Made by a program: the position numbers and the translations under genes. 49,984 nucleotides of DNA from an uncultured Dehalococcoidaceae bacterium (lineage in GTDB: Bacteria > Chloroflexota > Dehalococcoidia > Dehalococcoidales > RBG-16-60-22): contig CAYZOI010000003.1 of assembly GCA_964480145.1 (NCBI GenBank), positions 1 through 49,984 of the forward strand, read 5' to 3'. Of this stretch, positions 1 through 31,291 are shown piece after piece; within the stretch, counting starts at the first letter, position 1; each line of letters starts with the position of its first letter. The notes beneath the pieces are model-generated. The model made no database searches. It was not told the origin of the DNA and saw only the letters and a program-made list of their open reading frames with translations.

Positions 1-70
1 CAAGCTCTTCCAGCGATAGCCCCAGCTCTGACATGGTCAATTCCTGTCCCTTGTGGTATCCTTTCTTCAT
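1..70 (-). CDS. hypothetical protein, first 23 codons only (gene continues left of the window)
   Basis: ATG at 70 (rc) with a GGGAGGA Shine-Dalgarno-like motif at 78-84 (rc). It reads MKKGYHKGQELTMSELGLSLEEL. No family can be assigned from this stub. Confidence 0.35.
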   Translation of the reverse strand, partial: MKKGYHKGQELTMSELGLSLEEL

Positions 71-495
71 CGGTATATCCTCCCTTTCTGTTAGTTGGCT
101 TTCTTATAGGGTAGGATATGCCGATTCCTTTTTCCACCACATTCGGGACACTGCCTTTTACTTAGACCAATGTTAGGTTCTAGTCTGGTAGTTGTCAATG
201 ATTCTAGGAAATCCAACCGTCACATGATGTAGGTGGGATGTTATATCGACAATGCATGAACAGGATATGGGGATAACATATAGTCGCCGAGACTAGTGAG
301 GTGCTTCTTAAACATTAGCTTTCAAGAGTTGGACCCCCGGTAGGCCTTGATTCTTAAGCTCCTCATTTTGAAGCTAAATATTGAGCGTGAAACACTCCTT
401 GTACAAGTGTTAAAGTAAAATCGCAAGTGTGAGTGCTTACCTTTAGCAACTGTTTAAAGCCAGAATTTTCTTGGCGTGTCTTTATTTGGTCCTAA

Positions 496-532
496 AACGA
501 ACTTTTCACCACGATAAATGACAAGGTGGTAC
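496..532 (+). repeat. 37-nt imperfect direct repeat, copy 1 (AACGAACTTTTCACCACGATAAATGACAAGGTGGTAC)
   Basis: 33/37 identical by hand alignment to 1224-1260. Lies about 140 nt upstream of the VOC gene start. Confidence 0.8.
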
Positions 533-536
533 CAAA

Positions 537-565
537 TTGACAATATTAAATCAACGGAGTATATG
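537..565 (+). promoter_or_regulatory. candidate sigma70-type promoter for the VOC gene
   Basis: TTGACA (537-542), 17-nt spacer, TATATG (560-565), about 105 nt upstream of ATG 673. Pattern match only. Confidence 0.3.
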
Positions 566-672
566 TATTTATTAGAGGCAGCACCTCCGAAATTAGATGT
601 ATAATAGGGAAAAACATAACATCGGATAAGTTCCCAGATAGTAAAACAACCAAGAGAAAAAGGAGGTAATAC

Positions 673-1110
673 ATGGGAAATAACTGGGAGTTAGCGCATG
701 CAGGGTTAGTCGTGAGGGATATGGACAAGACTGTTGAATACTACCGTTCCCTAGATATAGGTGCAGAAATCGGCCCCGAGCACATAGGAGACAATAAGTC
801 ACGAGTAGTGACGAGATATGGCAAGATTGCTGATACTGAAGAGAAGTTCAAAATTAGGAATATCCAGATAGGTCCGCTATCCCTTCTTTTAAACCAGCCA
901 CTTGAAGGAAAAACCCATCAGCAAGAATTCCTTGACAAGAATGGTGGTGATGGCATCAACCATATTGCCTTCTATGTGGATGACCTAAAAAGTGAAAGAG
1001 CCAAGATGGTTGCGAAAGGTATTCAAATTATGTTCGAAGTTGAGGGTAATTGCTACTTTGACACCCGCGAATTTGGAAATGTCGTAATACAACTATTACA
1101 GCGGAAATGA
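673..1110 (+). CDS. VOC-family protein (glyoxalase/bleomycin-resistance/extradiol-dioxygenase fold)
   Basis: AAGGAGG RBS just upstream of ATG 673. The 145-aa product has VOC-type beta-alpha-beta motifs (LAHAGLVVRDMDKTVEYY, INHIAFYVDDLKSERAKMVAKG). Confidence 0.8.
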   Translation: MGNNWELAHAGLVVRDMDKTVEYYRSLDIGAEIGPEHIGDNKSRVVTRYGKIADTEEKFKIRNIQIGPLSLLLNQPLEGKTHQQEFLDKNGGDGINHIAFYVDDLKSERAKMVAKGIQIMFEVEGNCYFDTREFGNVVIQLLQRK

Positions 1111-1140
1111 AATAGTATTGCCCAAAAGATAACAGAATAA

Positions 1141-1192
1141 CTTTCCTCCCAAGCAAGGAGCCGCAGGTTCGAGACCTGCACAGCCTGCTGCC
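1141..1192 (+). pseudogene. degenerate tRNA/tmRNA-like 3' fragment (T-arm plus decayed acceptor strand)
   Basis: Perfect T-arm GCAGG-TTCGAGA-CCTGC (1163-1179) followed by ACAGCCTG. No 5' half and no CCA. Aligns loosely with the better-preserved fragment at 11932-11982 (shared TCCCAAG..GGAG..GGTTCGAG..CAGC). Confidence 0.45.
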
Positions 1193-1223
1193 TAATTCCT
1201 CAGTTCTTGCTAACATTTTTGCT

Positions 1224-1260
1224 AACGAACTTTTCACCATCACAAATGACAAAGTGGTAC
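1224..1260 (+). repeat. 37-nt imperfect direct repeat, copy 2 (AACGAACTTTTCACCATCACAAATGACAAAGTGGTAC)
   Basis: 33/37 identical to 496-532. Lies about 220 nt upstream of the MFS gene start and about 30 nt downstream of the tRNA-like fragment. Confidence 0.8.
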
Positions 1261-1481
1261 ATAAATAGTATCGCCCGAAGCTAATCAGGGTATCATGCTG
1301 TATTCTGTTGATTCACTTAGCTTATGGACTTGCCAGTATAAGCCGGTGTAATTGCCTACGGTACTATTCTTTATAGCCACATATTAAGTGTGATATTATC
1401 ACGATATGCAGCCGAATCATCCATTTAAGTTCAGCATATATGTATCTTTAAGGAAGGAGAATACTATCCATTCCATTTTTA

Positions 1482-2738
1482 TTGGGTAATATCAACCATC
1501 AATTCCCTGCCCTCCAGCCACTCAAGAATCGCAACTTCCGACTGCTTTTACTGGGTGAGATTATATTCTTGCTGGGAAATAAAGTTCATTTTATTGTTTT
1601 GGCTTGGCTCGCTCTCCAATTAACGGGTTCCTCGCTCACGCTGGGTTTTGTGTTAATGACAGCAGCTATTCCTAAGGCTTTGTTTATGCTTTTTGGCGGT
1701 GCTCTAAGTGATCGTTTTTCATTGCGGAAATTAATGCTAATCTCAAATTTAGCACGTGCAGCTATTGCCACTGGTATTGCCATTCTTGTATTCAACGAAG
1801 CAATAGAACTTTGGCACTTATATCTTTTTGTGTTACTAATCGGTGTGGCGGACGCTCTATTTCTCCCCGCGCTTATGACTACGATACCAAGCCTCTTAAA
1901 AAAGAATGAATTAGAGGCGGGGAATGCTCTTGCACGTGGAGCAATGCCAATAGGTACCTTGATTGGATCAGCTCCGGCAGGTCTTCTAATATCATCTGTA
2001 GGCATTGCAGCCACATTTGGAATTGATGCCCTTTTCTTTCTACTTGCGGTCACAGTGTTATGGTTAATGGCTGAGGCTATGTCTTATGTATCAACAAGCG
2101 ATGATGTGGTATCCAGAGCAGCGCATCGTTCCAGGAGCTTTGGTGTCTTGGGGGATATTAAGGACGGGCTAGGTTATGCTTGGCGCAGACCAGCGATTCG
2201 AGCACTTTTTATAACTGTCTCTGTAATCCACTTATCTTTTGTCGGTCCCTTTATCGTTGGTCTGGCAACACTGATAGATAGTTCCTTTGCCGGGGGAGCT
2301 ACTGACTTAGGAATAGTACGGTCTTGCTTTGGTGGTGGTGCGTTGTTGGGAGCAATCATTGCTGGCTCGGTTGTTTTCAAACATCGTGGTCTATTGCTTA
2401 TTATCATAACGGCAACACTTGGAGTAAATCTAATGCTTATAAGCTTGGCGCAGGACGTAATATTTGCTTCATTATTTGCCGGGCTGATAGGTATTGGGGA
2501 TGGTCTTATTAATGTTATAAGTTTTACTTGGCTTCAAAAAACAATACCATCGTATATGTTGGGACGCATGATGGGGCTTATCAACTCATCTGCTTTAATT
2601 TTAGCACCGATATCCTATGTTTTAACTGGTGCTATAGCTGAGATAAATCCATCTCTTGTATTTATTGTTGCTGGAATTCCTGTCTTGGTAATCACTATTT
2701 ACCTAGTTACTATTAAAGATTTTCGTCAACTAACCTAA
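1482..2738 (+). CDS. MFS transporter (EntS/MFS_3-like exporter)
   Basis: 418-aa, highly hydrophobic multi-helix product. NRNFRLLLLGEIIFLLG and GGALSDRFSLRKLM are typical MFS N-terminal and loop 2-3 motifs. The TTG start is uncertain because the frame is open from 1452. Confidence 0.8.
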   Translation: MGNINHQFPALQPLKNRNFRLLLLGEIIFLLGNKVHFIVLAWLALQLTGSSLTLGFVLMTAAIPKALFMLFGGALSDRFSLRKLMLISNLARAAIATGIAILVFNEAIELWHLYLFVLLIGVADALFLPALMTTIPSLLKKNELEAGNALARGAMPIGTLIGSAPAGLLISSVGIAATFGIDALFFLLAVTVLWLMAEAMSYVSTSDDVVSRAAHRSRSFGVLGDIKDGLGYAWRRPAIRALFITVSVIHLSFVGPFIVGLATLIDSSFAGGATDLGIVRSCFGGGALLGAIIAGSVVFKHRGLLLIIITATLGVNLMLISLAQDVIFASLFAGLIGIGDGLINVISFTWLQKTIPSYMLGRMMGLINSSALILAPISYVLTGAIAEINPSLVFIVAGIPVLVITIYLVTIKDFRQLT

Positions 2739-2744
2739 ATAAAG

Positions 2745-2796
2745 TGGCAGCGGGTGGATTTGAACCACCGACCAAGGGCTTATTTGGACTGCTGCC
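2745..2796 (-). pseudogene. tRNA-like remnant: acceptor stem plus T-arm minihelix, with D and anticodon arms missing
   Basis: rc reads GGCAGCA-(20 nt)-GGTGG-TTCAAAT-CCACC-CGCTGCC-A. It has a canonical T-loop and 6 of 7 acceptor pairs, but at 52 nt it is too short for a tRNA. Confidence 0.5.
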
Positions 2797-2817
2797 GAGA
2801 TATATGAGCACTTCTGG

Positions 2818-3053
2818 TGTGAACCCCGTTAAACTGGAGTAAATCAGGCCACTAACAAAATACTTTTTAATGTTCTACGAGCATACTGTACCGGGCTCAG
2901 GTAGTCAAGACTCTGATGCAAACGATCGGTTCGATACCAGGCACGGTAGGTTTCCCACCCTGTCCGTGCCTCATGAAAACTCCGGTACTCATGGCGATAG
3001 ATCTCCTCCGTCTTGTAGCTGCTGTTGAATGATTCGATGTATGGTTTGTAGCC
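2818..3053 (-). mobile_element. IS3-family transposase remnant (C-terminal ~65 codons of the rve/integrase-core ORF plus a possible TG..CA terminus)
   Basis: rc frame reads GYKPYIESFNSSYKTEEIYRHEYRSFHEARTGWETYRAWYRTDRLHQSLDYLSPVQYA...*, with its stop at 2844-2846. This matches the IESFN...YN..RxHxxL..xSPxxY end of IS3 OrfB. An upstream in-frame stop lies at 3054-3056, so the 5' part is missing. Sequence near 2818-2843 ends in ..CA on the element strand. Confidence 0.7.
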
Positions 3054-3074
3054 TTACCAAAAGGACTTCTTTTT

Positions 3075-4696
3075 GTGCTATCTGAGAAAAATAAGAAGGT
3101 AACTAAAATGGAGACTTCTTTTCAAAACAAACTAATCGAGATTCTGAAAACTGATCCTCGATTCATAGACCAGGACGGTGAGCTAGTAAAGGCTGCAATT
3201 ATTGACCGAGCCTGGAAGATTGACCGAGACTTGGTCAAGTTGCTTCTTTCTGACGATAGCATCAAGGTAAAATTTTTCGATGAAATTGAAGGACATTGGG
3301 TTTTTAACATCAATACTTTTATCGATTATATATCTGATAAGGATTTCCTTGATAATTCCTACACCCGATTCCGTAATAAGATAGGCTTGAATATAGATGG
3401 TAAGTATCTAAAAGAGCGTGGTGAGGTCTGTTTGGTCTGGCCTTACAAAGATTGCATATTGGAAGGTGGACAGACTAAAGAAGAAGAAAAACGAAAAGAA
3501 ATCTTCTTTAACGAAATTCTAGCTCAGGATGAAATAGACCGGCTATTGGATCCAAAAGTCTTGACCAATTGGAAACGGTACACCATCGATGGCGAGCAAG
3601 GAGTGTCTGAAATCAGGCGAGATGAAGGCGGTTTAATTAAAGAAAACCTGCTAATCAAAGGTAATAATCTACTTACCCTTCATTGCCTTAAACATCAGTT
3701 CATGGGTAAAGTCAAACTTATATATATTGACCCACCTTATAACACAGGTAATGATTCTTTTCGTTACAACGACAGTTTTAATCATTCCAGCTGGCTAACA
3801 TTCATGAAAAATCGCCTAGAAATTGCCAGAAAACTTCTCGCACCGGATGGAACTATTGCAGTGTCAATAGACCATAACGAAATCGCTTACATCTCAGTTC
3901 TGCTAGACGAGACATTTGGAATTAATAATCAAAAAAACATAATAACAGTTAAGAGAGGTTCTGTCACCGGAGCAAAAGTTATCAATCCTGGCGTTGTTAA
4001 CGTTTCGGAATACGTTGTGCTCTATTCAAATAATTTCGATAACTGGAAACCTAACCGAGTATTTAGAACGAGGGAAAGAGATAACCGCTATAACAAATAT
4101 ATAGCGAACATAGAGGAAAACCCTGGACATTGGAAATTTTTGAATTTGTTAGATGCTTTTGCTGAATATAAAGGCATCAATAAAAGTAAGTTAAAGAACT
4201 CTTTGGGAGAAGATTATGAATTAGAATTGGAACGTTTCATAATCAATAACAAAGATAGGGTTATACGTTTCGCCGCTCTTGATGATAGGAGTATCAGTGC
4301 TGATGCTTTAGAATTGAAACGTAAGTCCAAGGAAGATGAATCAAAGGTATTTGTACTTAAAAGAGAAAAAATCGTGACTATCATATCTATCAAGGCGAAT
4401 TAATACTTTTTGCCAGGGACAGGCTAGTAGATATTAATGGCGAGCAAATTTTTGGAGAACTTATTTCTGACATATGGGATGATGTATTACCAAATGACTT
4501 ACACAATGAAGGTAATGTTCAGTTTAGAAAGGGTAAGAAACCTGAAAAATTAATCTCTCGGATAATTGACTTATGCACTGATAAAGGTGACCTCGTTTTG
4601 GATTTCTTTGCAGGCAGCGGTACAACAGGTGCTGTTTCTTTGAAGATGAAAAGGCAATTTATAGTCTGTGAGCGGCTGGGAATCGTTGCATTTTAG
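3075..4696 (+). pseudogene. mod: type III restriction-modification Mod-like N6-adenine DNA methyltransferase, frameshifted and 3'-truncated
   Basis: Frame 1 (probable ATG 3108) carries LIYIDPPYNTGNDSFRYND (motif IV) and stops at 4401-4403. The -1 frame is open from 4361 to 4696 and continues DYHIYQGELILFARDRL...DFFAGSGTTGAV (motif I). The two frames overlap at the A6 run 4366-4371. The ORF ends about 15 aa after motif I, and no res gene follows. Confidence 0.75.
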
Positions 4697-4891
4697 TGAA
4701 TTTAATGTTAGATTTGTGAATCAATTTAAAGGGCTGACTAGGTGATAGTGTTTCACTATATGAAAGTTATACGAGGGATATTTTCAAAAATAAGAAAAAA
4801 CCTTTCCCGAACCGGTGAGGTTTTTCTGCCGTAATGAGAATCGTCCCGACTTCGGTCAGTAGCCCCAGGAATAATTGAATTAGAGGGGATT

Positions 4892-6160
4892 ATGCCAGGC
4901 ATTGATATCGGGGTAGACTTTTGCGGAATTCACCTATCAACTCCGTTTCTTATTGCCTCTGCGCCGTCTACCACAAGAATAGGCGAGATATACAAGCATG
5001 CCGAAAAGATAGCTGAGAACGGCTGGTCAGGTGTCGTAACAAAGACCGTCATCCATAAGGAAAAGTATGACCCGGAATTAAAGCCGCACCTGTGGACTAC
5101 ACCTCAGTTCAGGATAGTGGCCATGCAGAACGCCGGACCACAACTGGATATTTATAGTAAATCTTTGCTAAAAGATCTGAAGAGGGATACTGAAGCAGCC
5201 CACGCCGCAGGCATCAAGGTTATCGTTAGCATAATCGGCAGCACTTATGGCCAGTGGGGAGAGATGGCCAACGAGTGTGAGCAGGCCGGCGCCGACGGGA
5301 TAGAGCTGAATCTAAGCTGCCCATCCTACAGACCTACGATGCAGTCCTCTATGGGAGGGGCGCGGGTGGGTGGAGACCCGGAAGAAGCGGGCAGGGCGGT
5401 CGAAGCAACGGTTTCCGGCACGAATCTTCCAGTCATAGCCAAGTTGACGGCTCATGCTTCGGATATCTCCGCTGTAGCCACGGCATGCCAGGAGGCCGGT
5501 TGCGGCGCTATATCGGCCATCAACACAATGCGCGGGCTTATTGGCATTGATATTCAAACAGAAATGCCCCTGTCCAGTGATATAGAGGGGCGCTGTCATT
5601 ACTCGGGACTATCTGGCCCGCTAATCAAGCCTATTGCCCTGGGTATCTGCGCCAACCTGGCCCTATCGGTTGATGTTCCGATTAGCGCTATCGGTGGAAT
5701 AGTTGACTGGAGAGATACCGTCGAGTTCCTGCTGGCAGGTGCTTCCAATGTTCAGGTGGGCACCGGGATGATGTGGTACGGGTTTGGTCTGGGCACAAGG
5801 TTGCGCAGGGGACTGGAAAGCTATATGAAACAGAAGGGATACAGCTCAATACAAGACTTTAGGGGCCATGCCCTGAAGTATCTCGTGACTACCGAAAAAC
5901 AGGACTCCAGGGGCCATACGGTAAGATATATCTCCACCGCGGCAATACCGGAGGTATATCCAGCGGATTGTCACATGGAGCTTTCTCGGGAGAAGTGCAA
6001 TATGTGTCGGATGTGCCTTATTGCCTGCCGGGATGCTTCGATGGGTGCTATTGAGGAGGTAAACGGAAACCTGCGTATCAATCGCTCTAAATGTACCATT
6101 TGTGGACTATGTATGGTGGTATGCAAACCTGGAGCCATTATTTTACAAAGAAAAGTTTAA
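4892..6160 (+). CDS. dihydroorotate/dihydropyrimidine dehydrogenase-family flavoprotein with C-terminal 2x[4Fe-4S] ferredoxin domain (PreA-like)
   Basis: TIM-barrel motifs FLIASAP, MQNAGP, GADGIELNLSCP and AIGGI. The C-terminus has CNMCRMCLIAC and CTICGLCMVVCKP. RBS GAGGGG lies upstream of the ATG. Confidence 0.75.
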   Translation: MPGIDIGVDFCGIHLSTPFLIASAPSTTRIGEIYKHAEKIAENGWSGVVTKTVIHKEKYDPELKPHLWTTPQFRIVAMQNAGPQLDIYSKSLLKDLKRDTEAAHAAGIKVIVSIIGSTYGQWGEMANECEQAGADGIELNLSCPSYRPTMQSSMGGARVGGDPEEAGRAVEATVSGTNLPVIAKLTAHASDISAVATACQEAGCGAISAINTMRGLIGIDIQTEMPLSSDIEGRCHYSGLSGPLIKPIALGICANLALSVDVPISAIGGIVDWRDTVEFLLAGASNVQVGTGMMWYGFGLGTRLRRGLESYMKQKGYSSIQDFRGHALKYLVTTEKQDSRGHTVRYISTAAIPEVYPADCHMELSREKCNMCRMCLIACRDASMGAIEEVNGNLRINRSKCTICGLCMVVCKPGAIILQRKV

Positions 6161-6255
6161 GTATCAGAGATTAACTTGGCCCAATGTTCTTCAGGCATTT
6201 GAAGTGGCGGTAACCGAAGCCACGTTATTATAGCGAGTATTAAGGGGGGGGAGAG

Positions 6256-7746
6256 ATGACAGAAGCAGTCAGGGGCCGATACGTATTAACCGGTGATATC
6301 CAGGGGAAGGTGATAGAGGATGGAGCTGTGGTATTTGATGGCGGAACCATCCTTGACCTGGGGCCGTTCAGCGAGATGCAGGCTATTTACAATCCGGTGA
6401 AGGTTTACGGTTCCCCCAACCATGTGGTTCTGCCCGGCCTGGTGAACTCGCATAGCCATGGACTCGGGGTAAACCTGCTCCGAGTAGGTCCCGGGGATGA
6501 ACCCTTAGAGCGCTGGTTTATCAACACCTGGTATCACCCGGATGGTAAAAGAGTGCCTATCTTTTATGAGAATACCCTTATCAATGGGCTGCAGATGCTC
6601 AAATCAGGGGTGACCACGGTGGTACACCATCATTATTTCAGCGAGGCCAATAGCGAAAACCATCTGGAGGTGATGAACCTCTGCTTGCAGGCTTACAAGG
6701 ACCTGGGAATGCGGGTGGCCTTTGCGCCTTTTATCAGAGACCGGCATCAATTTGCCTATCTGGATGACAGTGCCTTTATCTCAAGCCTTCCCGCCCATGC
6801 CGTTGACTCCTTAAGAGGGATAGGGAAAATCCCTGTTCGATATCCCACCGCGGCGCAGTATTTTCAGGCCTTTGACAAACTGAGGAGCCAGCATGAAGGT
6901 GACCAGACACGTTTCCTTTTTGGTCCAGCAGGCCCGCAATGGTGTACCCCGCAGCTCCTCAAAGAGATAAAGGAGCGCTCCGAACTGGAAGGTATCGGTA
7001 TCCATACCCATGTTCTGGAGAGTCCGATGCAGAGGAAGTATGGTGAGCGAGAGTATCCCGGCGGGCTTATCGGCTATCTGGAGGAATTGGGCTTGTTGAA
7101 CTCAAGGTTAACCCTGGTACACGGAGTTCAACTGACAAAGCAGGACATAAAAAAACTGGCACATGCTGGTTGCAAGGTAGCCCACAACCCCAGCAGCAAT
7201 CTGAGATTGTTTAACGGTGTGGCTCCCGTCAGAGAGATGCTTGAGGCAGGACTCGATGTAGGGCTGGGAATGGACAGCACCTCCCTGGATGATGATGAAG
7301 ATATGTTCCGGGAAATGAGGTTATGTTCGATATTGCAGCGCCCGCGGAAGATCGACGCCAGTCCAATCCCTAGTTCGCTTATACTGCATATGAACATAGC
7401 TAACGGAGCCAAAATAACCCAGTTTGAAGATGTCATCGGTCCTTTGGAGCGAGGAAAGAAGGCTGACTTAATACTGTTAGACTTCTTGAAAATAGAGGAG
7501 CCATTCATTGGCCCGGAGGCTGATGTGCTCTCTATCATCCTTCATCTAGCCACCAAAAGGCATGTTGATACTGTTTTTATCGACGGGTGTCCCGTTGTGG
7601 AGCAGGGCAAATCAAACCGGATCGACGAAGCGAAATTGCTGCAGGATATCAGGCAAAAGTATCAATTTAAGGGTGATGACCCTGAATCTAAAAAGCTGCG
7701 CCGGGCTATGACTGATGAGTTGATACGCCTTTACTCGGCGTGGTAA
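6256..7746 (+). CDS. amidohydrolase-superfamily protein (TRZ/ATZ-SsnA / aminohydrolase-chlorohydrolase-like branch)
   Basis: Metal-binding HxH in LPGLVNSHSHG. Later motifs are GIHTHVLES, LVHGV, AHNPSSN and GMDS. 496 aa, with a strong GGGGGGAG RBS. Confidence 0.7.
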   Translation: MTEAVRGRYVLTGDIQGKVIEDGAVVFDGGTILDLGPFSEMQAIYNPVKVYGSPNHVVLPGLVNSHSHGLGVNLLRVGPGDEPLERWFINTWYHPDGKRVPIFYENTLINGLQMLKSGVTTVVHHHYFSEANSENHLEVMNLCLQAYKDLGMRVAFAPFIRDRHQFAYLDDSAFISSLPAHAVDSLRGIGKIPVRYPTAAQYFQAFDKLRSQHEGDQTRFLFGPAGPQWCTPQLLKEIKERSELEGIGIHTHVLESPMQRKYGEREYPGGLIGYLEELGLLNSRLTLVHGVQLTKQDIKKLAHAGCKVAHNPSSNLRLFNGVAPVREMLEAGLDVGLGMDSTSLDDDEDMFREMRLCSILQRPRKIDASPIPSSLILHMNIANGAKITQFEDVIGPLERGKKADLILLDFLKIEEPFIGPEADVLSIILHLATKRHVDTVFIDGCPVVEQGKSNRIDEAKLLQDIRQKYQFKGDDPESKKLRRAMTDELIRLYSAW

Positions 7747-7807
7747 GTAGTACTACGTTTGCCGCTGAGTAAGGTCCCACAAATTCAAAGACGGAGGAAT
7801 AAAGAGT

Positions 7808-8956
7808 ATGAGTAAACGAAAGGAAGCAAGCTACGAAAGGTTTATTACCGGCCCGATCCCTCGCTTTGATGATAGAAACGGCGGATTTTCTAAGCTCCAG
7901 AGAGGCGAAATAATTGACTTGGACAACATTGTGACGATGCAAAAAGGTGCAGCGACAGTAATCGAGCGCGCGCTTTCAAGAGACCCCACTAGGAAGGACA
8001 AGAAAGGGTATGAGCAAGAGGACTACGCATTGAAACAGGCGGGCAGAACGGTCGATGTTCATGTCAGGAAGAACTTGTTCTCCAGAGATTCAGAAGTTGA
8101 TGAAAACAAGGTTGATGATTCGGAAAAGGCGACCATAACTCGCAAAATCAAAAGAGTGGCCGGATGGTTTGGAGCAGACTTAGTAGGTATCTGTGAGGTT
8201 AATCCGGCCTGGGTTTATACACACTGGGGGGATAATAACGCCATCAGGAGTGGTATAGCCAACTCAGGAGACCCGATAGAGTTGCCGTCATGGGTTAAAT
8301 CCGCGATTGTCATGGTTATTGCCATGGACTACCAGCGGTTAAGGAGGAGCCCGGCAGCAGAAGGCGGTACGGATTTAGCCTATTCCAAGATGGCATTTAC
8401 GGCAGCGTCCGTGGCAACATATATCCGCAGTCTGGGTTATCATGCTATCCCATGTGGTAATGACCTAGCGCTTAGTATTCCTCTAGCGGTAGATGCTGGG
8501 CTTGGAGAGCTAGGCAGAAACGGCATGCTTATAACTAAGCAATTTGGGCCACGGGTGAGAATTTGTAAAGTTTTCACCGAGCTCTCGCTGGAACCTGATT
8601 CGCCGATAGATATAGGCGTGCAGCATTTCTGCGAGAGATGTGAGATCTGTGCTAAGTCATGTCCAGGCCAAGCCATCAAGCACGGCGATAGAACTGACAA
8701 AGCCTGGGACGATTCAAACAGCATGAACTTGCTCAAATGGCCCGTGAAATCAATGAATTGTCTGACCTACTGGATCAAAAACAGAGCAGATTGCGCCGTT
8801 TGCCTGCGCACCTGTCCATTTAACAAACCAAAGGGGCCGCTTCATTCCGTGGTAAGAGAAACCATAGAAACAACATATTGGTTCGACCGATTATTTATCA
8901 AGATGGACAAAGTATTCAAATACGGTGAGCAAGTCCTTACCGAACTAGAAGACTGA
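7808..8956 (+). CDS. reductive dehalogenase-like corrinoid/Fe-S protein lacking a Tat signal (cytoplasmic RdhA-like)
   Basis: The core matches RdhA: IKRVAGWFGADLVGICEVNPAWVY, AGLGELGRNGMLIT, FGPRVRICKVFT. It has two Fe-S motifs, FCERCEICAKSCPGQAI and CLTYW..CAVCLRTCPFNKP. The N-terminus MSKRKEASYERF has no RRxFLK motif. No small hydrophobic rdhB-like ORF is adjacent. Confidence 0.65.
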   Translation: MSKRKEASYERFITGPIPRFDDRNGGFSKLQRGEIIDLDNIVTMQKGAATVIERALSRDPTRKDKKGYEQEDYALKQAGRTVDVHVRKNLFSRDSEVDENKVDDSEKATITRKIKRVAGWFGADLVGICEVNPAWVYTHWGDNNAIRSGIANSGDPIELPSWVKSAIVMVIAMDYQRLRRSPAAEGGTDLAYSKMAFTAASVATYIRSLGYHAIPCGNDLALSIPLAVDAGLGELGRNGMLITKQFGPRVRICKVFTELSLEPDSPIDIGVQHFCERCEICAKSCPGQAIKHGDRTDKAWDDSNSMNLLKWPVKSMNCLTYWIKNRADCAVCLRTCPFNKPKGPLHSVVRETIETTYWFDRLFIKMDKVFKYGEQVLTELED

Positions 8957-9082
8957 GGCTTCAAGGAAGCTGAGGTTTCCCGGTTGAGAAGGACTAGAGG
9001 TCTTAAAGAAGTAACAGAAGCTTGAATTGTTACCTCATTGCACAATTCAGACGTCCGCGCAAATAATTGTGGGGAGCAGTAA

Positions 9083-10252
9083 TTAAGAGGCCAGTTCTTT
9101 TATCGTCCGCTCTATCCTCTCCAAAGCCTTGCTAATATTTTCCAAAGATGTTGCATAGGAAAATCTTAAAAAACCGCCACCATACTGGCCAAAATGGGCG
9201 CCCGGCAGACAGGCCACGCCAGCCTTATTGAGAAGAATATCAGCCAGTTGTTCGCAGCCAATCCCCACTTCTTTAACGTTTGGGAAAACATAGAACGCTC
9301 CCTTAGGTAGGACGCAGCTTATACCGGCTATCTTGTTGAGTCCGTTAACAATAAGGTCTCTCCGCTTCCTGAACTCGTTAACCATTTGCGGTACGCTGTC
9401 CTGTGGCCCGGTGAGCGCTTCAATGCCAGCATGTTGGGTAAAAGGCGCGGTGCAGGAGACGCTGTTGACAATCAGGCGCACCACTGGCTCTACAAGTTTC
9501 GGTGGTAGGGCAGCATAACCCAGACGCCAGCCAGTCATAGCGTAGGTTTTGGAAACACCGCTTAGGAGAATGGTTCGATCAAGCATACCCGGCAAGCTGG
9601 CGATGCTAAAGGACTCATGTTCGTATACAATATGCTCATAGACTTCATCTGATAGCACCGTTATTTCGCGGTCCTTGACCATTTCTGCGATGGCGAGAAC
9701 ATCATCTTTCTCGAGAACGCCGCCAGTAGGATTATGCGGTGAGTTGAGAACGATGAGCTTGGTGCGCGGCGTAATCTTCTTCTCGAGCTCATCAACATCG
9801 AAGCGGAAGTCCAGTTCCTCCCTGAGCTGAACTGGAACTGATTTAGCCCCTGTGAAGTTGATAGCAGATTCGTATATGGGGTAACTCGGGTCAAGACAGA
9901 TGGCTTCATCGCCTTCCTCAAGCAGTGCCAGTATTGAGAAAAATACTATTGGCTTTGCACCTGGTGTCACAACAATGCGTGCCGGATCTATATCAACATT
10001 TCTCGTTTTCCCCAACTCTTCAGCAATAACGTTTCGTAGAGGGACAATTCCCTGAGAATTGCAATAGTGCGTCTGACCGTTGTCGAGTGCTTTCTTTGCT
10101 GCATTTCGAATATTTTCCGGGGTATCGAAATCGGGTTCCCCTATTTCAAGATGAACAATGTCCATCCCTTTGGCCTCAAGAGCTTGAGCTTTGGCCAGTA
10201 CGCCGAATGCGGTCTCCGTTCCTAACCCGAACATTCTTTGAGCTATTTCCAT
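9083..10252 (-). CDS. class I/II pyridoxal-phosphate aminotransferase (aspartate/aromatic aminotransferase-like)
   Basis: LEIGEPDFDTPENI, NSPHNPTGG and the PLP-lysine motif SKTYAMTGWRLGYA. 389 aa. Confidence 0.85.
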   Translation of the reverse strand: MEIAQRMFGLGTETAFGVLAKAQALEAKGMDIVHLEIGEPDFDTPENIRNAAKKALDNGQTHYCNSQGIVPLRNVIAEELGKTRNVDIDPARIVVTPGAKPIVFFSILALLEEGDEAICLDPSYPIYESAINFTGAKSVPVQLREELDFRFDVDELEKKITPRTKLIVLNSPHNPTGGVLEKDDVLAIAEMVKDREITVLSDEVYEHIVYEHESFSIASLPGMLDRTILLSGVSKTYAMTGWRLGYAALPPKLVEPVVRLIVNSVSCTAPFTQHAGIEALTGPQDSVPQMVNEFRKRRDLIVNGLNKIAGISCVLPKGAFYVFPNVKEVGIGCEQLADILLNKAGVACLPGAHFGQYGGGFLRFSYATSLENISKALERIERTIKELAS

Positions 10253-10286: not shown

Positions 10287-11336
10287 CTACAGCGAGCGAT
10301 GTTCACCAGGTGGCTTAATTTTCAACTCTTTCGCCAAATTAATCAGCTCTTTCCACGTTGTGTCCTCTATCGGTATGCCGTCTCGCATCCTCTTCTCAGC
10401 CTCTCGTTCCTCAATCTCCCCGGGTATGAGTATCTCTGTAAATCCATCCATCGGAGGGCATGACTTCACATTACCAATTAAATGCAATACATCTTCCTTA
10501 TATTCCTCGTAATCCCTGAACCTGCTAATATCAATAACCGTAATAAAAAAACCACCCTGTGTTGATGGATGGGCTTCTATGTATTTGCTCTGTAGAGCGC
10601 CAAGCAACGCGCTCGATAGCACTTCAATTGCCATTACCAGTCCATAACCTTTATACCCGCCAAAGGGGAGAAGAAATCCCTCTAATGCCTCCTTGGGGTC
10701 GGTAGTCGGTTTACCCTGCTTATCCAAAGCCACCCCTTCGGGTATTTCCTTACCCCTGCGAGCTGCCACCCTAATTTTGAAAGCGGCCATGACACTCGTG
10801 GCCATGTCCAGAATTATCGAACTCCCCTCATCCATAGGAAAACCTACACACAGGGGGTTTGTGCCGAACATTTTCTCCCGGCCTCCCCATGGAATCATAA
10901 TAGCCGGTGCGTTTACACAGGCAAACCCGATAAAGCCATGCCCAATAACTTTCTTCATGTAATAAGCCAGCATCCCCACATGTCCAAGATTCCTGACACC
11001 GACTACGCCAACGCCGGTGGATTTCGCTTTATCAATCGCTAAGTCGGTGGCTTTCGTGGCTGCAGGAATGCCAAGGCCGTTTCCCCCGTCCAGCAGGGTT
11101 ATGCTGGAAGACTCCTCAACTACGCGAATATCAGATCCGGGCTGCACGAAACCCTTACGAATACCCTCTACATAGTATGGAATCCGTATAATTCCATGAG
11201 AGTCAACACCCCTCAAGTTCGCTAAAACAAGGTTATCGGCAATGTTCTCAGCATCTTCTTTTGGAACACCGCATTTCTCAAAACATTCAGTGCAGAAATC
11301 CTGTGCTTGCTCAGCTGAAACCTTAACATTCTCCAT
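10287..11336 (-). CDS. Ldh_2-family NAD(P)H oxidoreductase (malate/L-sulfolactate/ureidoglycolate dehydrogenase family)
   Basis: LANLRGVDSHGIIRIPYYVEGIRKG, NLGHVGMLAYY, TNPLCVGFP and GGYKGYGLVMAIEVL are hallmarks of the type-2 malate/lactate dehydrogenase family. Confidence 0.8.
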   Translation of the reverse strand: MENVKVSAEQAQDFCTECFEKCGVPKEDAENIADNLVLANLRGVDSHGIIRIPYYVEGIRKGFVQPGSDIRVVEESSSITLLDGGNGLGIPAATKATDLAIDKAKSTGVGVVGVRNLGHVGMLAYYMKKVIGHGFIGFACVNAPAIMIPWGGREKMFGTNPLCVGFPMDEGSSIILDMATSVMAAFKIRVAARRGKEIPEGVALDKQGKPTTDPKEALEGFLLPFGGYKGYGLVMAIEVLSSALLGALQSKYIEAHPSTQGGFFITVIDISRFRDYEEYKEDVLHLIGNVKSCPPMDGFTEILIPGEIEEREAEKRMRDGIPIEDTTWKELINLAKELKIKPPGEHRSL

Positions 11337-11757: not shown

Positions 11758-11931
11758 TGTGTTTGTTCCGAAGCAACAACCTCAGGAAGTAGCACGATTT
11801 CAACGCTTAAAATTTTCGTGAATATTACTGTACTGATGAACCATATCGAGATATAATATAGGCGACCACAATTCAACGAGGGGATTATATTGCTGCCGAA
11901 CCGCAGACTTTTAAACAGCAGAGCAGGAAAT

Positions 11932-11982
11932 CTTGACTTCCCAAGGAGGAAGTCAGGGGTTCGAGTCTCCTCAGCTCCACCA
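11932..11982 (+). pseudogene. 3' end of a tmRNA (ssrA) or tRNA-Ala-type gene (T-arm, acceptor strand, CCA) without a 5' half
   Basis: AGGGG-TTCGAGT-CTCCT-CAGCTCC-A-CCA at 11955-11982. CAGCTCCACCA is the Ala-identity acceptor end found in ssrA and tRNA-Ala. No GGGGCTG or GGAGCTG partner lies within the 75-400 nt upstream that I read. Confidence 0.6.
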
Positions 11983-12007
11983 AGAAAATCCGTGTTGGAG
12001 GTAAAAC

Positions 12008-12652
12008 GTGAAGGTTATTGGCTTTAGCTCCGGCGGTATCGGGCACGAGGGCAATACTGACCGCATGGTCAAGGCAATTATGGCCGGAAGCGGGCACGAA
12101 TACGAATTCGCCAAGCTTTCCGAGTTAAACTATTCGGGCTGCAAGGGATGCGTGCAGCTCTGTGCCAAGCGCCAGGTATGCCTTCTTAAAGACGACCTCC
12201 TGCCCTATTACCAGAAAATCAAGGAGGCTGATGCCATTGTCGTTGGCAGTCCGGTTTATTTCCGGAACATAAACGCCGATTGCTACAGCTTCCTGGAACG
12301 TTTTTTCGGATACCGTCACGTCAAGAGCGCCGTCCAGAACAAACCTTTCGCCCTGGTTGTCTGCGGACAGGACAAGATAGAAGCCGGCGTGGACTATCTT
12401 CAATGGTTCCTGCAGCGTTTCGGGGTAAAGATACTAGACACCGTGCGCTATGTTTCAAAATCGCCTCCCTGTCTCAGCTGCGGACGGCATCAGGAGTGCC
12501 GCATCGGAGGGCTGTACCAGGTCAGAGGTGAAGCTGCTCACTCCCTGATTATTGAGCCGGAGCTCTTCCAGAGATGGGAGGACAACCCGGTCACTATAGA
12601 AGCAGTGGAAGCTGCCGCTGGAAAGCTAAGAGCCCTCGGTGACAACGTTTGA
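12008..12652 (+). CDS. flavodoxin-fold NADPH-dependent FMN reductase / iron-sulfur flavoprotein-like protein
   Basis: MKVIGFSSGG...GNTDRMV, a Cys cluster (CKGCVQLC) and EADAIVVGSPVYFRNINA are typical of the Isf/FMN_red family. GTG start. Confidence 0.65.
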   Translation: MKVIGFSSGGIGHEGNTDRMVKAIMAGSGHEYEFAKLSELNYSGCKGCVQLCAKRQVCLLKDDLLPYYQKIKEADAIVVGSPVYFRNINADCYSFLERFFGYRHVKSAVQNKPFALVVCGQDKIEAGVDYLQWFLQRFGVKILDTVRYVSKSPPCLSCGRHQECRIGGLYQVRGEAAHSLIIEPELFQRWEDNPVTIEAVEAAAGKLRALGDNV

Positions 12653-12778
12653 TTGCAAAGAAGCAAAACGCTTACAATATTTGACCTGCCCCACTCGCCC
12701 TGCCCCCAAAACTGGTCCGGGTTTGATGCGGTACAATGAGAATCGGGTAGCCTACAGAACGGTAGGGGAGGTGCCATA

Positions 12779-14692
12779 ATGTCAAGTCTGGCTCAAGAAG
12801 CGCCCGGCGCTCGCGAATTGCTGATGGGCAATGAAGCAATTGCCAGAGGTGCCCTGGAGGCGGGAGTCCAGTTCGTTACCGGCTATCCGGGAACTCCGTC
12901 TTCGGAGATAGTGGGAAGTTTAGCTAGGATTGCCAATGAAACCGGGATATACGTGGAGTGGTCAACCAACGAGAAGGTCGCCACAGAGGCCGCCGCAGCG
13001 GCTTCTTTCGCCGGATTACGGGCGTTGTCCGTCATGAAAACGGCTGGCATAAACGTCGCTCTGGACTTTCTGTCCCACCTGAATTACTCGGGTCTCGGTA
13101 AAAACGGGGGCGGGCTGGTGGCTGTGGTCTGCGATGACCCCGAGGGGCATTCCAGCGGTGACGAGGCCGACTCGCGCTGGCTAGCCAGCGCTGAAGGCAT
13201 TCCCCTGCTGGAACCAGACAGCCCGGAAGAAGCCAGGGAGATGACAAAATGGGCCTTCGACCTTTCCGAGGAGTTCAACGGGTTCTTCCTGGTAAGAAGC
13301 ACCACCCGTATTTCGCTTTCCAGCGGTCCGGTTACGCTGGGCAAGATAACCGTTACGGGAAGGAAGGCCAGCTTTGATACTTCGCAGTGTATTTCCCCCT
13401 ATCTGGCCAGGCTTCACCATAGCGATGTCCTCGAGAGACTTGCCAGAGTAGAGAAAACCTTTGAGAAATCCTCCTTCAACTGGTACCGGGGCCCGCAAAA
13501 ACCGGAGCTGATTATTGTCTGCAGCGGCGTCAGCACCCGCTACTCTCTGGAAGCAATAGAATCGCTCGGCCTGGGTAAATCGGTCGGCGTATTGAAACTG
13601 GGAACACTCTGGCCGTTTCCCGGAAAATTCGTGGAAAAGCACCTCTCGAAAGCGAACCGGGTTCTGGTAGTAGAGGAAATCGACCCCTTTCTCGAAACCT
13701 TCGTGAAAAAGACGGCCTTTGAGTCGACCGAGCTGACCGGTGACCTGAAAGTCTACGGCAAAGAAACCGGCCACCTGCCTAAGATAGGCGAGTTAAGACC
13801 AGACCTGATATCAAAGGCGCTGGCCGCACTTTTTGAGACCGAATATGTCGATAGGGACGCGGGGTATAAGCAAAAAGCCGACGATGTCGCGGCAAAGCTG
13901 CTGATTGACCGCGGCGTAACCTGGTGCGCGGGGTGTCCACACCGGGCAAGTTTCTGGTCTATCAGAAAGGCCCTGCAGAAAGACGGCCGGGATGGCTTCC
14001 TGACCGGTGACATCGGCTGCTATACGCTGGACGTCTTTCCCGCCGGTGATAAACTGACCAAGGCGCTGCATGCCATGGGCTCCGGGGCTGGACTCGCCAC
14101 CGGCTTCGGCCATCTCAGCCAGTTTGGCTCGGAACAGCCGGTTATGGCCGTGTGTGGTGATTCGACCTTTTTCCATGCTTCCATACCCGCCCTTCTCAGC
14201 GCCATACACAACAAAGCAAATATGGTGATGATAGTGCTGGACAACAGAGCGACGGCAATGACCGGCTTCCAGTCCCACCCCGGGACAACGTTCGATGCGA
14301 TGGGAAATACGGCTCCCGCCATAGATGTGGCGAACCTCTGCCAGAGCCTGGGGTGCCAGGTGGTGATAACCGACCCCTTCGATATAGAAGATACCACCGA
14401 AAAAATACAGCAACTCTTAAAGGAAGACGGGGTCAAGGTCCTGATAATGCGTCGCACGTGCGAGCTGGTGCGAATGAGAGAGGAGAAAAAGCCACCCTTT
14501 ACCGTGTGGGTTGACGCCGAGAAGTGCCGCGGAGAGGATTGCGGTTTTTGCACCAAGTCATTCAAGTGCCCGGCCCTGCCCTGGGACATTGAGACGGAGA
14601 AAGCGATAATCAACAAGGCGGTCTGTTCGGGTTGCGGTGTATGTGTTGGCATCTGCCCGTTTGGGGCAATCGTGAAACAGGAGGCATCATAA
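12779..14692 (+). CDS. iorA: indolepyruvate:ferredoxin oxidoreductase, alpha subunit
   Basis: LMGNEAIARGALEAGVQFVTGYPGTPSSEIV, a TPP-binding region GDIGCYT...GDSTFFHASIPAL, and C-terminal 2x[4Fe-4S] motifs (CRGEDCGFC, CSGCGVCVGICP). Confidence 0.9.
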   Translation: MSSLAQEAPGARELLMGNEAIARGALEAGVQFVTGYPGTPSSEIVGSLARIANETGIYVEWSTNEKVATEAAAAASFAGLRALSVMKTAGINVALDFLSHLNYSGLGKNGGGLVAVVCDDPEGHSSGDEADSRWLASAEGIPLLEPDSPEEAREMTKWAFDLSEEFNGFFLVRSTTRISLSSGPVTLGKITVTGRKASFDTSQCISPYLARLHHSDVLERLARVEKTFEKSSFNWYRGPQKPELIIVCSGVSTRYSLEAIESLGLGKSVGVLKLGTLWPFPGKFVEKHLSKANRVLVVEEIDPFLETFVKKTAFESTELTGDLKVYGKETGHLPKIGELRPDLISKALAALFETEYVDRDAGYKQKADDVAAKLLIDRGVTWCAGCPHRASFWSIRKALQKDGRDGFLTGDIGCYTLDVFPAGDKLTKALHAMGSGAGLATGFGHLSQFGSEQPVMAVCGDSTFFHASIPALLSAIHNKANMVMIVLDNRATAMTGFQSHPGTTFDAMGNTAPAIDVANLCQSLGCQVVITDPFDIEDTTEKIQQLLKEDGVKVLIMRRTCELVRMREEKKPPFTVWVDAEKCRGEDCGFCTKSFKCPALPWDIETEKAIINKAVCSGCGVCVGICPFGAIVKQEAS

Positions 14693-15322
14693 ATGAAATA
14701 TCACGATGACCCTTTGAATGTGGTAATCAGCGGGGTTGGCGGCCAAGGGAATATCCTGCTCTCCCGCCTTATCGGCCAGTGCCTGTTAAGAAAAGGCTAC
14801 CATGTCGCCATAGGTGAGACGCTGGGTGTGGCCCAAAGGGGCGGGGGGGTAATGAGCAATGTACGGATATCAGAAAAAATGCAATTCGGCCCGCTTATCC
14901 CGGAAGGTCAAGCCCATGTCATTCTCAGCCTCGAACCCCTGGAGACCCTGAGGATGCTGGTCAGGTATGGAAACCCGAAGGTAACCACCATAACCAATTT
15001 CAACCCTCTTTTCCCGGTATCAGTGCTCTCCCGAAAGGACCGGTACCCGGAAGATGAAGCCCTCAAGGAAGCCATCGGGCAACTCTCGGCATCAGCCTGG
15101 TTCCTGGATGCCACCGGCATCGGCCTGAAGCTGGGAGCCCCTATCGTGGCCAATGTCATAATCCTCGGGGGATTAATCGGGCTCAATCTACTCCCCCTCA
15201 CCAGAGAAGATATTGCGGCAGAGCTGAAGGCCAGCTTCACCCCGGACAGAGTTAAACTGAACCTGAAGGCACTCGGTCTGGGGATGGAGTCCGTAGCGTC
15301 GAAGGCGAAGGCCAGTAATTAG
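14693..15322 (+). CDS. iorB: indolepyruvate:ferredoxin oxidoreductase, beta subunit
   Basis: Starts immediately after the iorA stop. ISGVGGQGNILLSRLIG is the gamma-domain motif of 2-oxoacid:ferredoxin oxidoreductases. Confidence 0.85.
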   Translation: MKYHDDPLNVVISGVGGQGNILLSRLIGQCLLRKGYHVAIGETLGVAQRGGGVMSNVRISEKMQFGPLIPEGQAHVILSLEPLETLRMLVRYGNPKVTTITNFNPLFPVSVLSRKDRYPEDEALKEAIGQLSASAWFLDATGIGLKLGAPIVANVIILGGLIGLNLLPLTREDIAAELKASFTPDRVKLNLKALGLGMESVASKAKASN

Positions 15323-19763: not shown

Positions 19764-19793
19764 GCGGCGTGGTGCCATGCCACGCCGCTTTTT
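19764..19793 (+). terminator. rho-independent terminator after panB
   Basis: 9-bp GC-rich stem GCGGCGTGG / CCACGCCGC (19764-19772 and 19780-19788), 7-nt loop, then TTTTT (19789-19793). The T-run overlaps the stop codon of the convergent gene. Confidence 0.7.
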
Positions 19794-22404: not shown

Positions 22405-22429
22405 AATATTACCTCCACAACCGATTGTT

Positions 22430-23629: not shown

Positions 23630-23683
23630 CAGTGCCACTCCTTTTTAGTACGCTGGTCAGGCGGTAACTACTTCGTTTTCCAG

Positions 23684-30136: not shown

Positions 30137-30141
30137 ATTGC

Positions 30142-31269: not shown

Positions 31270-31291
31270 CTTGTCTGTGCCTTTGAAAATA

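Follow-up and report, generated by a model that had tools for sequence, protein, structure and literature searches.

Does a reductive dehalogenase gene that directly follows a ring reductase gene and an amidohydrolase gene form one catabolic pathway with them, or was it moved to this position? The question is raised by a locus at positions 4892 to 8956 of a 49,984-nucleotide (nt) stretch of DNA (hereafter the window; contig CAYZOI010000003.1, assembly GCA_964480145.1) of an uncultured Dehalococcoidaceae bacterium belonging to the Chloroflexota. The locus comprises three open reading frames (ORFs):

4892-6160, plus strand: ORF1, PreA-like flavoprotein, 422 amino acids (aa)
6256-7746, plus strand: ORF2, amidohydrolase, 496 aa
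7808-8956, plus strand: ORF3, reductive dehalogenase (RdhA) family protein, 382 aa

An initial annotation, made from the letters alone, had proposed a dedicated three-gene pathway. Its description of the arrangement was confirmed by ORF calls and sequence inspection: the three genes are co-directional, the gaps measure 95 nt (ORF1-ORF2) and 61 nt (ORF2-ORF3), and purine-rich, Shine-Dalgarno-like stretches are located 5' of each ATG (tagaGGGGAtt, aaGGGGGGGGAGAG and acGGAGGAataaagagt for ORF1, ORF2 and ORF3, respectively). All three domain assignments also stood up to Pfam and NCBIfam profiles and to motif inspection. The pathway itself fared differently. The analysis presented here indicates that a leaderless RdhA gene was probably shuffled behind a pre-existing gene pair for N-heterocycle conversion; a conserved dedicated pathway formed by the three genes is not supported.

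ORF3 as a predicted cytoplasmic RdhA

The ORF3 product reaches 228 bits against the RdhA profile TIGR02486 (cut-off 160.35) and 45 bits against the QueG (epoxyqueuosine reductase) profile TIGR00276 (cut-off 200), the latter match being restricted to the Fe-S region at residues 224-341. Pfam recognizes solely Fer4 domains in the protein. In phmmer searches against PDB chains, PceA ranked first (8q4h, E = 6.5e-53; 4uqu, E = 9.7e-51), followed by NpRdhA (2e-22) and QueG (1e-5 to 1e-9); by this measure the protein is nearer to the respiratory PceA (E about 1e-53) than to NpRdhA. Identity to PceA amounts to about 50% across the C-terminal ~220 residues, and the N-terminal third is weakly similar. 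Residues Y192, N218 and R251 align to PceA Y246, N272 and R305, and Y192 additionally aligns to NpRdhA Y426. An alignment of 114 homologues shows no variation at Y192, at R251 or at any of the eight Fe-S cysteines, and at least 90% conservation at N218. The Fe-S motifs are CERCEICAKSCP at residues 275-286 and Cx10CxxCxxxCP at residues 318-337.

An AlphaFold model built on the alignment of the 114 homologues was predicted with a pLDDT of 91.1 and a pTM of 0.92. When this model was compared with the PDB by Foldseek, 8q4h_A was retrieved with E = 8e-29 and a TM-score of 0.79; the query-normalised TM-scores ranged from 0.65 to 0.79 for PceA, from 0.70 to 0.73 for NpRdhA and from 0.3 to 0.4 for QueG. 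The alignment to the NpRdhA structure 4ras spans only 4ras residues 352-573. Profile score and TM-score together rule out a QueG identity. By sequence and predicted structure, ORF3 appears to be a genuine RdhA catalytic subunit, a corrinoid/Fe-S protein with a PceA/NpRdhA-like fold; the initial classification as RdhA and not QueG thereby holds, as does the expectation of a corrinoid fold with conserved catalytic residues.

The first 60 residues contain neither an RR motif nor a hydrophobic h-region as would be found in a twin-arginine translocation (TAT) leader, and no transmembrane helix was detected (maximal 19-residue Kyte-Doolittle hydropathy 1.1). Between 3 and 13 kb of the window, there is no ORF of 45-200 aa with at least two hydrophobic segments which might represent rdhB. 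As TAT leader, membrane helix and rdhB are all missing, a respiratory RdhAB system was ruled out and a cytoplasmic, non-respiratory role, as initially annotated, is a reasonable reading; the same inference has been published for the class of RdhAs discussed below. The protein also does not belong to the self-sufficient NpRdhA/BhbA type, as it comprises just 382 aa and possesses neither a second cobalamin domain nor an NAD(P)H reductase domain. Most likely, the enzyme would reside in the cytoplasm, where low-potential electrons from ferredoxin or a similar donor would pass via the two [4Fe-4S] clusters to the corrinoid. A halide would then be removed from a soluble organic substrate, with Tyr192 and Arg251, as judged from homology, serving the leaving group.

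It might be asked whether the RdhA fold serves a different corrinoid-dependent reduction, one that, like the epoxide reduction by QueG, acts on a metabolite without halogen. No biochemically characterized member of the short, leaderless ~380-aa form was found in the literature, the neighbourhoods of these genes consist of ordinary catabolic genes with no obvious link to halogens, and organosulfonate-flavoured neighbours recur. However, the Tyr/Arg/Asn set for halide elimination in PceA is conserved, the protein scores above the trusted cut-off for RdhA and far below that for QueG, and the closest structures are those of organohalide reductases. We therefore consider a function other than dehalogenation highly improbable.

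The gene order is confined to one population

The order of PreA-like gene, amidohydrolase gene, rdhA and a convergent aminotransferase gene was recovered solely in two further contigs, L015 and L016 (L numbers denote comparison loci), which are 98% identical to the window at the nucleotide level from position 4673 onwards and carry a 99%-identical amidohydrolase gene. Both represent the same population as the window. All other close relatives of the RdhA have different neighbours, and five contexts can be distinguished at 92-95% amino acid identity. The upstream gene is a member of the mandelate racemase family (MR_MLE) in L006 (93%); a convergent transporter gene of the major facilitator superfamily (MFS) follows in L012 (92%); a GRDB-like gene precedes and a Rce1-like gene follows in L013/L014 (92%); dihydrodipicolinate synthase (DHDPS) and PfkB genes are located upstream in L028/L029 (92-95%); and in L030 (92-95%) the RdhA gene lies between TypA upstream and an MFS gene downstream. 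At 75-81% identity, the homologues are accompanied by a divergent thiamine diphosphate (TPP) enzyme, a convergent 2-hydroxyacid dehydrogenase and a class III aminotransferase, and at 72% MTTB methyltransferase genes are found nearby.

A scan of a genome collection with the RdhA protein returned only distant matches in Zixibacteria and Sphingobacteriales. A metagenome scan with the clade alignment yielded 50 further loci; neighbours were clustered on 61 loci and families were scanned within 10 kb. At none of the 50 further loci was a PreA-like gene or an amidohydrolase of the window type present within that distance.

The homologues of the two upstream genes give a similar picture. Genes for PreA-like proteins with 49-55% identity are located near genes for an IclR regulator, a branched-chain-type ABC transporter, an ornithine carbamoyltransferase (OTCase)-like carbamoyltransferase, an aminotransferase and a thiolase, and an Asp/Glu-type racemase occurs in L024/L025 (55%) only; no RdhA is encoded near the homologues at 55% and 49%. 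The amidohydrolase homologue at 73% stands alone among unrelated genes, that at 65% is the middle one of three tandem amidohydrolases, and neither has an RdhA nearby. In one relative, L027 (94-95%), a pyridoxal phosphate (PLP) enzyme gene and the PreA-like gene are retained, together with some 117 codons from the start of the amidohydrolase gene. The similarity breaks at window position 6608, and the amidohydrolase continues as a LuxR/FixJ-type helix-turn-helix fragment (L027 3384-3542), which may reflect a real rearrangement or an assembly chimera.

The adjacency of rdhA to the other two genes is thus a recent, population-specific juxtaposition and no evidence for a dedicated pathway. Synteny was among the checks named initially: the proposal was to fall if the three genes were never syntenic in relatives and were transcribed independently. 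The first part holds everywhere outside the one population, the order being limited to the 98%-identical contigs; in this strain, the genes may nevertheless be co-transcribed. That a tidy three-gene "operon" proves to be specific to a single population illustrates that gene context can mislead.

rdhA as a probable gene-sized mobile unit

A blastn comparison of the window with L006, L012, L013, L014, L028, L029 and L030 revealed 93.6-95.8% nucleotide identity over a single block, flanked by unrelated sequence:

7766-9033: rdhA block of about 1.26 kb, comprising ribosome binding site, rdhA and a 3' tail of about 75 nt; the only DNA common to the copies in other contexts

The left-hand limit of the matches is 7766 or 7776 and the right-hand limit 8994 or 9030-9033; besides the gene, the shared DNA thus includes 32-42 nt ahead of the ATG and 40-75 nt behind the stop codon. 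Among the copies the ends are nested and ragged (left -83, -42 and -32; right +40, about +70-75 and +105). rdhA moves as a gene-sized unit between unrelated neighbourhoods.

Several established routes were considered for this movement. An integron cassette was ruled out, since the attC pattern (RYYYAAC ... GTTRRRY) is missing from the intergenic regions and the ends are ragged; across the window the pattern matched six times, with 7.8 matches expected, and no integrase was found among the annotated window ORFs. A tRNA-targeted island was rejected, as no tRNA gene lies beside rdhA in the window or in 18 loci. In L006, a tRNA-like 3' fragment is located downstream of rdhA, which is recognized by neither ARAGORN nor Rfam. 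Carriage by a phage or plasmid was likewise rejected: no relatives were found on viral contigs, and plasmid matches do not exceed 37% identity.

In L028/L029, a repeat of about 290 nt (85-87% identity between copies) flanks rdhA in inverted orientation. It includes an ORF of 74-79 aa that has no Pfam match, and the copies are located as follows:

L028 3334-3626: repeat copy
L029 1428-1720: repeat copy
L029 3239-3519: repeat copy
L029 4860-5003: repeat copy

A piece of about 55 nt of this repeat abuts the left end of the rdhA block and is also present in L012. Within the window, CACAAATTCAA is located at 7778-7788 near the 5' end of the block, and an imperfect inverted complement, TTGAATTGT, at 9022-9030 at its 3' end. 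Immediately beyond the block, at 9041-9053, the motif occurs a third time, in direct orientation, as CACAATTCAGACG, which forms an 8-bp hairpin with TTGAATTGT. This terminal inverted motif of 10-11 nt was rejected as the boundary of a precise element: it was noticed post hoc, is contradicted by the ragged ends at other loci and may be due to chance. The best fit to the movement of rdhA is a series of recombination events or else a gene-specific sweep through related genomes.

We propose that the ~1.26-kb unit was placed at the 3' end of the existing PreA-like/amidohydrolase gene pair, in a stretch that is atypical and prone to rearrangement. Neither intergenic gap contains a terminator-like hairpin or a significant RNA structure (z-scores -1.1 to +1.3), and a simple consensus scan, which is a weak test for this organism, identified no promoter in either of them. 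No riboswitch or other RNA element was found near the three genes, the only RNA feature being a tRNA-Pro at 37.6 kb. On the downstream side, the rdhA stop codon is 126 nt away from position 9083, where the convergent gene ends. In this strain, rdhA is probably read through from the upstream genes, since no terminator was found and the conserved 5' sequence that accompanies the gene amounts to just 32-42 nt, too short to hold a promoter.

The upstream gene pair and its probable role in N-heterocycle conversion

ORF1 consists of a DHO_dh barrel (Pfam, 1.4e-26) and C-terminal Fer4 domains forming a 2x[4Fe-4S] ferredoxin domain, with two CxxCxxCxxxC motifs at residues 369-379 and 401-411. Its best PDB matches are residues 531-852 of pig dihydropyrimidine dehydrogenase (DPD) and dihydroorotate dehydrogenase (DHODH) B. 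PreA is the top NCBIfam match, at 275 bits below the cut-off of 335, and named true PreA proteins share about 32-36% identity with ORF1. As this is only about a third, we assign ORF1 to a divergent PreA-like clade. A PreT-like partner gene was found neither within 1-12 kb of the window nor in L015, and with the PreA score below the cut-off and no adjacent PreT, membership in the NAD-dependent dihydropyrimidine dehydrogenase PreA/PreT was rejected.

ORF2 is, judging by its profile matches, a metal-dependent amidohydrolase of the branch including TRZ/ATZ hydrolases, methylthioadenosine (MTA) deaminases and 8-oxoguanine deaminases. It matches Amidohydro_1 (4.3e-40) and carries the metal-binding/catalytic motifs HSH at residues 66-68 and HTHVLE at residues 250-255. 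The top NCBIfam families are TRZ/ATZ hydrolase, N-ethylammeline chlorohydrolase, 5'-deoxyadenosine deaminase and 8-oxoguanine deaminase, all of them below their cut-offs (TRZ/ATZ, the best, 224 bits versus 540; SsnA 149 versus 444). The best PDB match is 4f0r, an MTA/S-adenosylhomocysteine (SAH) deaminase.

The initial annotation had likened a ring-reducing flavoenzyme next to a hydrolase to reductive N-heterocycle catabolism, and the contigs from the same population lend weight to this comparison. Upstream of position 4673, they carry a divergent cluster encoding a CysK-like PLP enzyme, an ArgE/DapE-type M20 deacylase, a three-subunit molybdenum hydroxylase of the xanthine dehydrogenase (XDH) family and MocA. 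Such a set is consistent with the scheme of the reductive uric-acid (2,8-dioxopurine) pathway found in anaerobes, in which XdhD is followed by the flavin/Fe-S reductase YgfK and the amidohydrolase SsnA, YgfK and SsnA carrying out reductive dearomatisation and subsequent hydrolysis (Li et al. 2025; PMC12507026). By analogy to XdhD-YgfK-SsnA, the PreA-like protein and the amidohydrolase, together with the molybdenum hydroxylase, the M20 deacylase and the PLP enzyme, would most likely reduce an N-heterocycle and then open it hydrolytically.

RdhA neighbourhoods across the family

Several observations weigh against reading the locus as a mere juxtaposition. No terminator separates the three genes, which could still form a functional operon in this population. 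Most of the comparison loci are short metagenome contigs, and some of their junctions could be assembly chimeras. XDH-family genes occur within 10 kb of RdhA genes in three subclades, and L035 2754-21096 (near-identical in L037) is a tight co-directional cluster of ~18 genes, separated by gaps of 2-76 nt, which includes two RdhA genes. The order in L035/L037 begins with a flavoprotein, a ferredoxin, a glyoxalase-family protein, an aldehyde:ferredoxin oxidoreductase (AFOR), a benzoylformate-decarboxylase-like TPP enzyme and a HisC-type aminotransferase. The two RdhAs, a CuyB-like racemase, an OTCase-like enzyme and a bona fide carbamate kinase follow. The cluster ends with the small, medium and large XDH subunits, a second racemase-like protein and a D-hydantoinase/dihydropyrimidinase-like enzyme. 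Both RdhAs pass TIGR02486 and are 58% and 32% identical to that of the window. Because of this cluster and the recurrent XDH-family genes, a real link between RdhA and N-rich ring compounds is conceivable.

Do these observations restore a single cytoplasmic pathway, with RdhA removing the halogen from an N-heterocycle, the PreA-like protein reducing the ring and the amidohydrolase opening or deaminating it? The tight gaps, the ribosome binding site before each gene and the lack of a terminator between them would suit such a pathway, as would the retention of the order in two independent assemblies of the same population and the XDH-family molybdenum hydroxylase and M20 deacylase which these contigs add. 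The 58% relative, which embeds two RdhAs among D-hydantoinase-like, XDH, OTCase-like and carbamate kinase genes, points in the same direction, and in L040 the gene for the XDH large subunit is located 261 nt upstream of that for RdhA. However, the synteny is missing in every relative examined outside the 98%-identical population, and the same rdhA allele group is found elsewhere beside sugar-acid, transporter and housekeeping genes. XDH-family genes may be present in multiple copies per genome in such lineages, and if this is assumed, proximity to XDH alone would be weak evidence. We consider the dedicated pathway unlikely.

A second alternative concerns the genes on the other side of rdhA:

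9083-10252, minus strand: class I/II aminotransferase (Aminotran_1_2, 7.5e-68), convergent with rdhA
10287-11336, minus strand: Ldh_2-family 2-hydroxyacid dehydrogenase (Ldh_2, 1.2e-122), in the same convergent unit as the aminotransferase

The best NCBIfam match of the Ldh_2 protein is L-sulfolactate dehydrogenase (294 bits versus a cut-off of 500), and an 80%-identical copy is located 9.3 kb from the 75% RdhA in L001/L002. With these two genes as the relevant neighbours, RdhA might be tied to amino-acid or 2-oxo-acid metabolism and act on a halogenated amino acid or keto/hydroxy acid, for example of the halotyrosine type. Of all immediate neighbours of RdhA across the 61 loci, a class I/II aminotransferase recurs most often, in three subclades and three orientations: convergent in the 98% subclade, upstream at 58% (L035/L037) and downstream at 47-49% (L055-L058, L060, L061 and L066). 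In L055, L058, L060 and L066 (RdhA 47-48%), genes for a branched-chain-type ABC transporter (binding protein, permeases and two ATPases), RdhA, the aminotransferase and a cupin follow each other on one strand, an arrangement which suggests, at the level of gene order, an imported amino-acid-like substrate. The TPP enzyme, 2-hydroxyacid dehydrogenase and class III aminotransferase around the 75-81% homologues would also fit, as would genes at 12.8-17.1 kb of the window which resemble those for indolepyruvate:ferredoxin oxidoreductase (IOR) and an AMP-forming ligase. Against this, none of the five contexts at 92-95%, all on short contigs, includes an aminotransferase, between the three subclades the aminotransferases share only ~33% identity, no paper was found that links RdhA to aminotransferases or halotyrosine, and the substrate is entirely speculative. 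A role in amino-acid or 2-oxo-acid metabolism thus appears quite improbable.

Further neighbourhoods differ again. In the RdhA subclade at 49-53% (L042-L054 and L063), nine loci encode a protein of ~560-620 aa in which only a C-terminal PEP-utilizers mobile domain is recognizable, often together with a divergent LysR gene; no other neighbour of this subclade recurs as consistently. Organosulfonate-flavoured genes also recur near RdhA genes: besides the Ldh_2 gene of the window with its L-sulfolactate dehydrogenase match, L001 3214-3972 encodes a protein with a ComB-like 2-phosphosulfolactate phosphatase domain, accompanied by a TRAP transporter, and the racemase encoded at L035 12426-13106 passes the cut-off for CuyB (cysteate racemase). 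The neighbour associations are specific to subclades, and the trio of the window is not a conserved unit.

At the level of themes, a link of the cytosolic RdhAs to the catabolism of N-rich ring or amino-acid-like compounds is possible as judged from gene content. It might be speculated that short cytosolic RdhAs have repeatedly been recruited into anaerobic clusters for such compounds, and that the window represents a recent event of this kind; we regard this as a tentative and rather unlikely scenario. Just as tentatively, the recruiting clusters would comprise an XDH-family molybdenum hydroxylase, a ring reductase or hydantoinase-type hydrolase, an OTCase-like carbamoyltransferase, a carbamate kinase and aminotransferases. 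If recruitment were true, the population could ferment halogenated heterocycles, such as marine bromo- or chloro-pyrimidines, purines, hydantoins or alkaloid fragments, and an undescribed non-respiratory link would connect dehalogenation to N-heterocycle fermentation. The shuffling of rdhA behind an existing gene pair is nevertheless the account we prefer for the window itself, and the L035/L037 cluster and the operons of ABC transporter, RdhA and aminotransferase are better candidates for substrate discovery.

Genomic setting of the locus

The stretch preceding the three genes differs from that of the other two contigs of the population:

1-4672: low-GC segment (GC content at third codon positions, GC3, 0.34-0.43) with genes for a glyoxalase, an MFS efflux-type transporter and a decayed Type III restriction-modification methylase

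This segment occupies the position of the divergent molybdenum hydroxylase cluster, and homology to L015/L016 begins directly behind it at 4673. The methylase ORF (3075-4403) is frameshifted and truncated at its 3' end; it continues in another frame at 4400-4696, with the motif FAGSGTT, and ends at the breakpoint. A 136-nt stretch upstream of the PreA-like gene (4715-4850) is present in the window and L015 and missing in L027, representing an indel. The genes between 4.9 and 11.8 kb have GC3 values of 0.47-0.57, those of core genes (dnaA, gyrA, dnaK, obg and others) range from 0.62 to 0.74, and the step is located at ~11760-12010. This suggests that the block from the PreA-like gene to Ldh_2 is an acquired or plastic island abutting core genes. 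rdhA lies in a layered, atypical and rearrangement-prone stretch.

Behind this step, co-directional genes at 12008-17128 encode an FMN reductase, IOR-like alpha (637 aa) and gamma-type subunits and an AMP-forming ligase (601 aa). Situated a few kb from the aminotransferase/Ldh_2 pair, this group resembles a module for converting arylpyruvate to aryl-acetyl-CoA. Two corrinoid methyltransferase sets (19792-23638 and 29102-31927) include a RACo-type activase, a pterin-binding methyltransferase, URO-D/MtaA-like proteins and a B12-binding protein; the organism thus uses corrinoids independently of RdhA. dnaA is located at 34159-35499 on the minus strand, followed by an AT-richer stretch (to 35835; GC content 0.48 over 34-36 kb), with gyrA, dnaK, grpE and obg nearby. 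The presence of dnaA places the window on the chromosome near the origin, which would lie ~26 kb from rdhA. In Dehalococcoides, high-plasticity regions flanking the origin hold rdhA genes, and the window is reminiscent of this arrangement. The locus thereby draws attention to a probable shuffling of rdhA close to the replication origin.

Comparison with known systems

Like XdhD-YgfK-SsnA and PreT/PreA, the window combines a flavin/Fe-S ring reductase with an adjoining amidohydrolase of the TRZ/ATZ branch, and the other contigs of the population add an XDH-family molybdenum hydroxylase, an M20 hydrolase and a PLP enzyme, as in the former system. Unlike in XdhD-YgfK-SsnA, all proteins remain below the equivalog cut-offs (PreA 275 versus 335, SsnA 149 versus 444, YgeY 131 versus 321, pucD 541 versus 784 bits), the PLP enzyme is CysK-like (333 versus 351) and not YgeX, and neither PreT nor a YgfK-type NAD(P)H module is encoded. 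An identity of these genes with the selenium-dependent molybdenum hydroxylase (SDMH) uric-acid/reductive purine cluster was rejected at the equivalog level for SsnA, YgeY and YgeX.

With PceA (8q4h, from a membrane-bound reductive dehalogenase complex; 4uqu, from Sulfurospirillum multivorans), the RdhA of the window shares the corrinoid-binding core and the 2x[4Fe-4S] domain. It differs in having neither a TAT leader nor an RdhB anchor and in being about 80-120 residues shorter, and it presumably resides in the cytoplasm, uncoupled from quinol and from any respiratory complex. The catabolic, oxygen-tolerant and self-sufficient NpRdhA/BhbA enzymes (4ras, 6zy1) are cytoplasmic and non-respiratory as is expected for the window RdhA, and the catalytic tyrosine aligns; identity in the structural alignment is ~21-22%. 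In contrast to the window RdhA, NpRdhA comprises ~700 aa with an additional vestigial cobalamin-binding domain, and BhbA-type enzymes possess an NAD(P)H reductase module.

The closest counterpart is provided by the "simplified cytosolic" type of RdhA described for Desulfobacterota and Chloroflexota, with a mean length of 395 aa (Han et al., Microbiome 2025; PMC12219181). RdhAs lacking a TAT leader or RdhB have similarly been reported for marine Dehalococcoidia (Wasmund et al. 2016; PMC4959651) and Desulfatiglans (Jochum et al. 2018; PMC6129605). In the accessible portions of these three descriptions, the neighbours of cytosolic RdhAs comprise IclR/MarR regulators and beta-oxidation, galactose and tRNA genes with little conserved synteny, and a neighbourhood of a PreA-like protein and an amidohydrolase is not mentioned. 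The named relatives of the window RdhA are encoded in metagenome-assembled genomes of Chloroflexota, Desulfobacteraceae, Deltaproteobacteria and Deferrisomatales. Leaderless homologues are abundant in Chloroflexota and Desulfobacterota of marine sediments, where gene context is the main clue to function. As far as the published description could be matched, the window RdhA corresponds to the simplified cytosolic type in length, missing signals and taxa: shared features are a size of ~380-395 aa, the lack of TAT leader, transmembrane helix and rdhB, both Fe-S motifs, and a shortened N-terminus devoid of the vestigial second cobalamin domain. A view that no such enzyme class has been described is accordingly no longer up to date where the RdhA is concerned; the class is established in the literature, and the window gene appears to add a further member to it.

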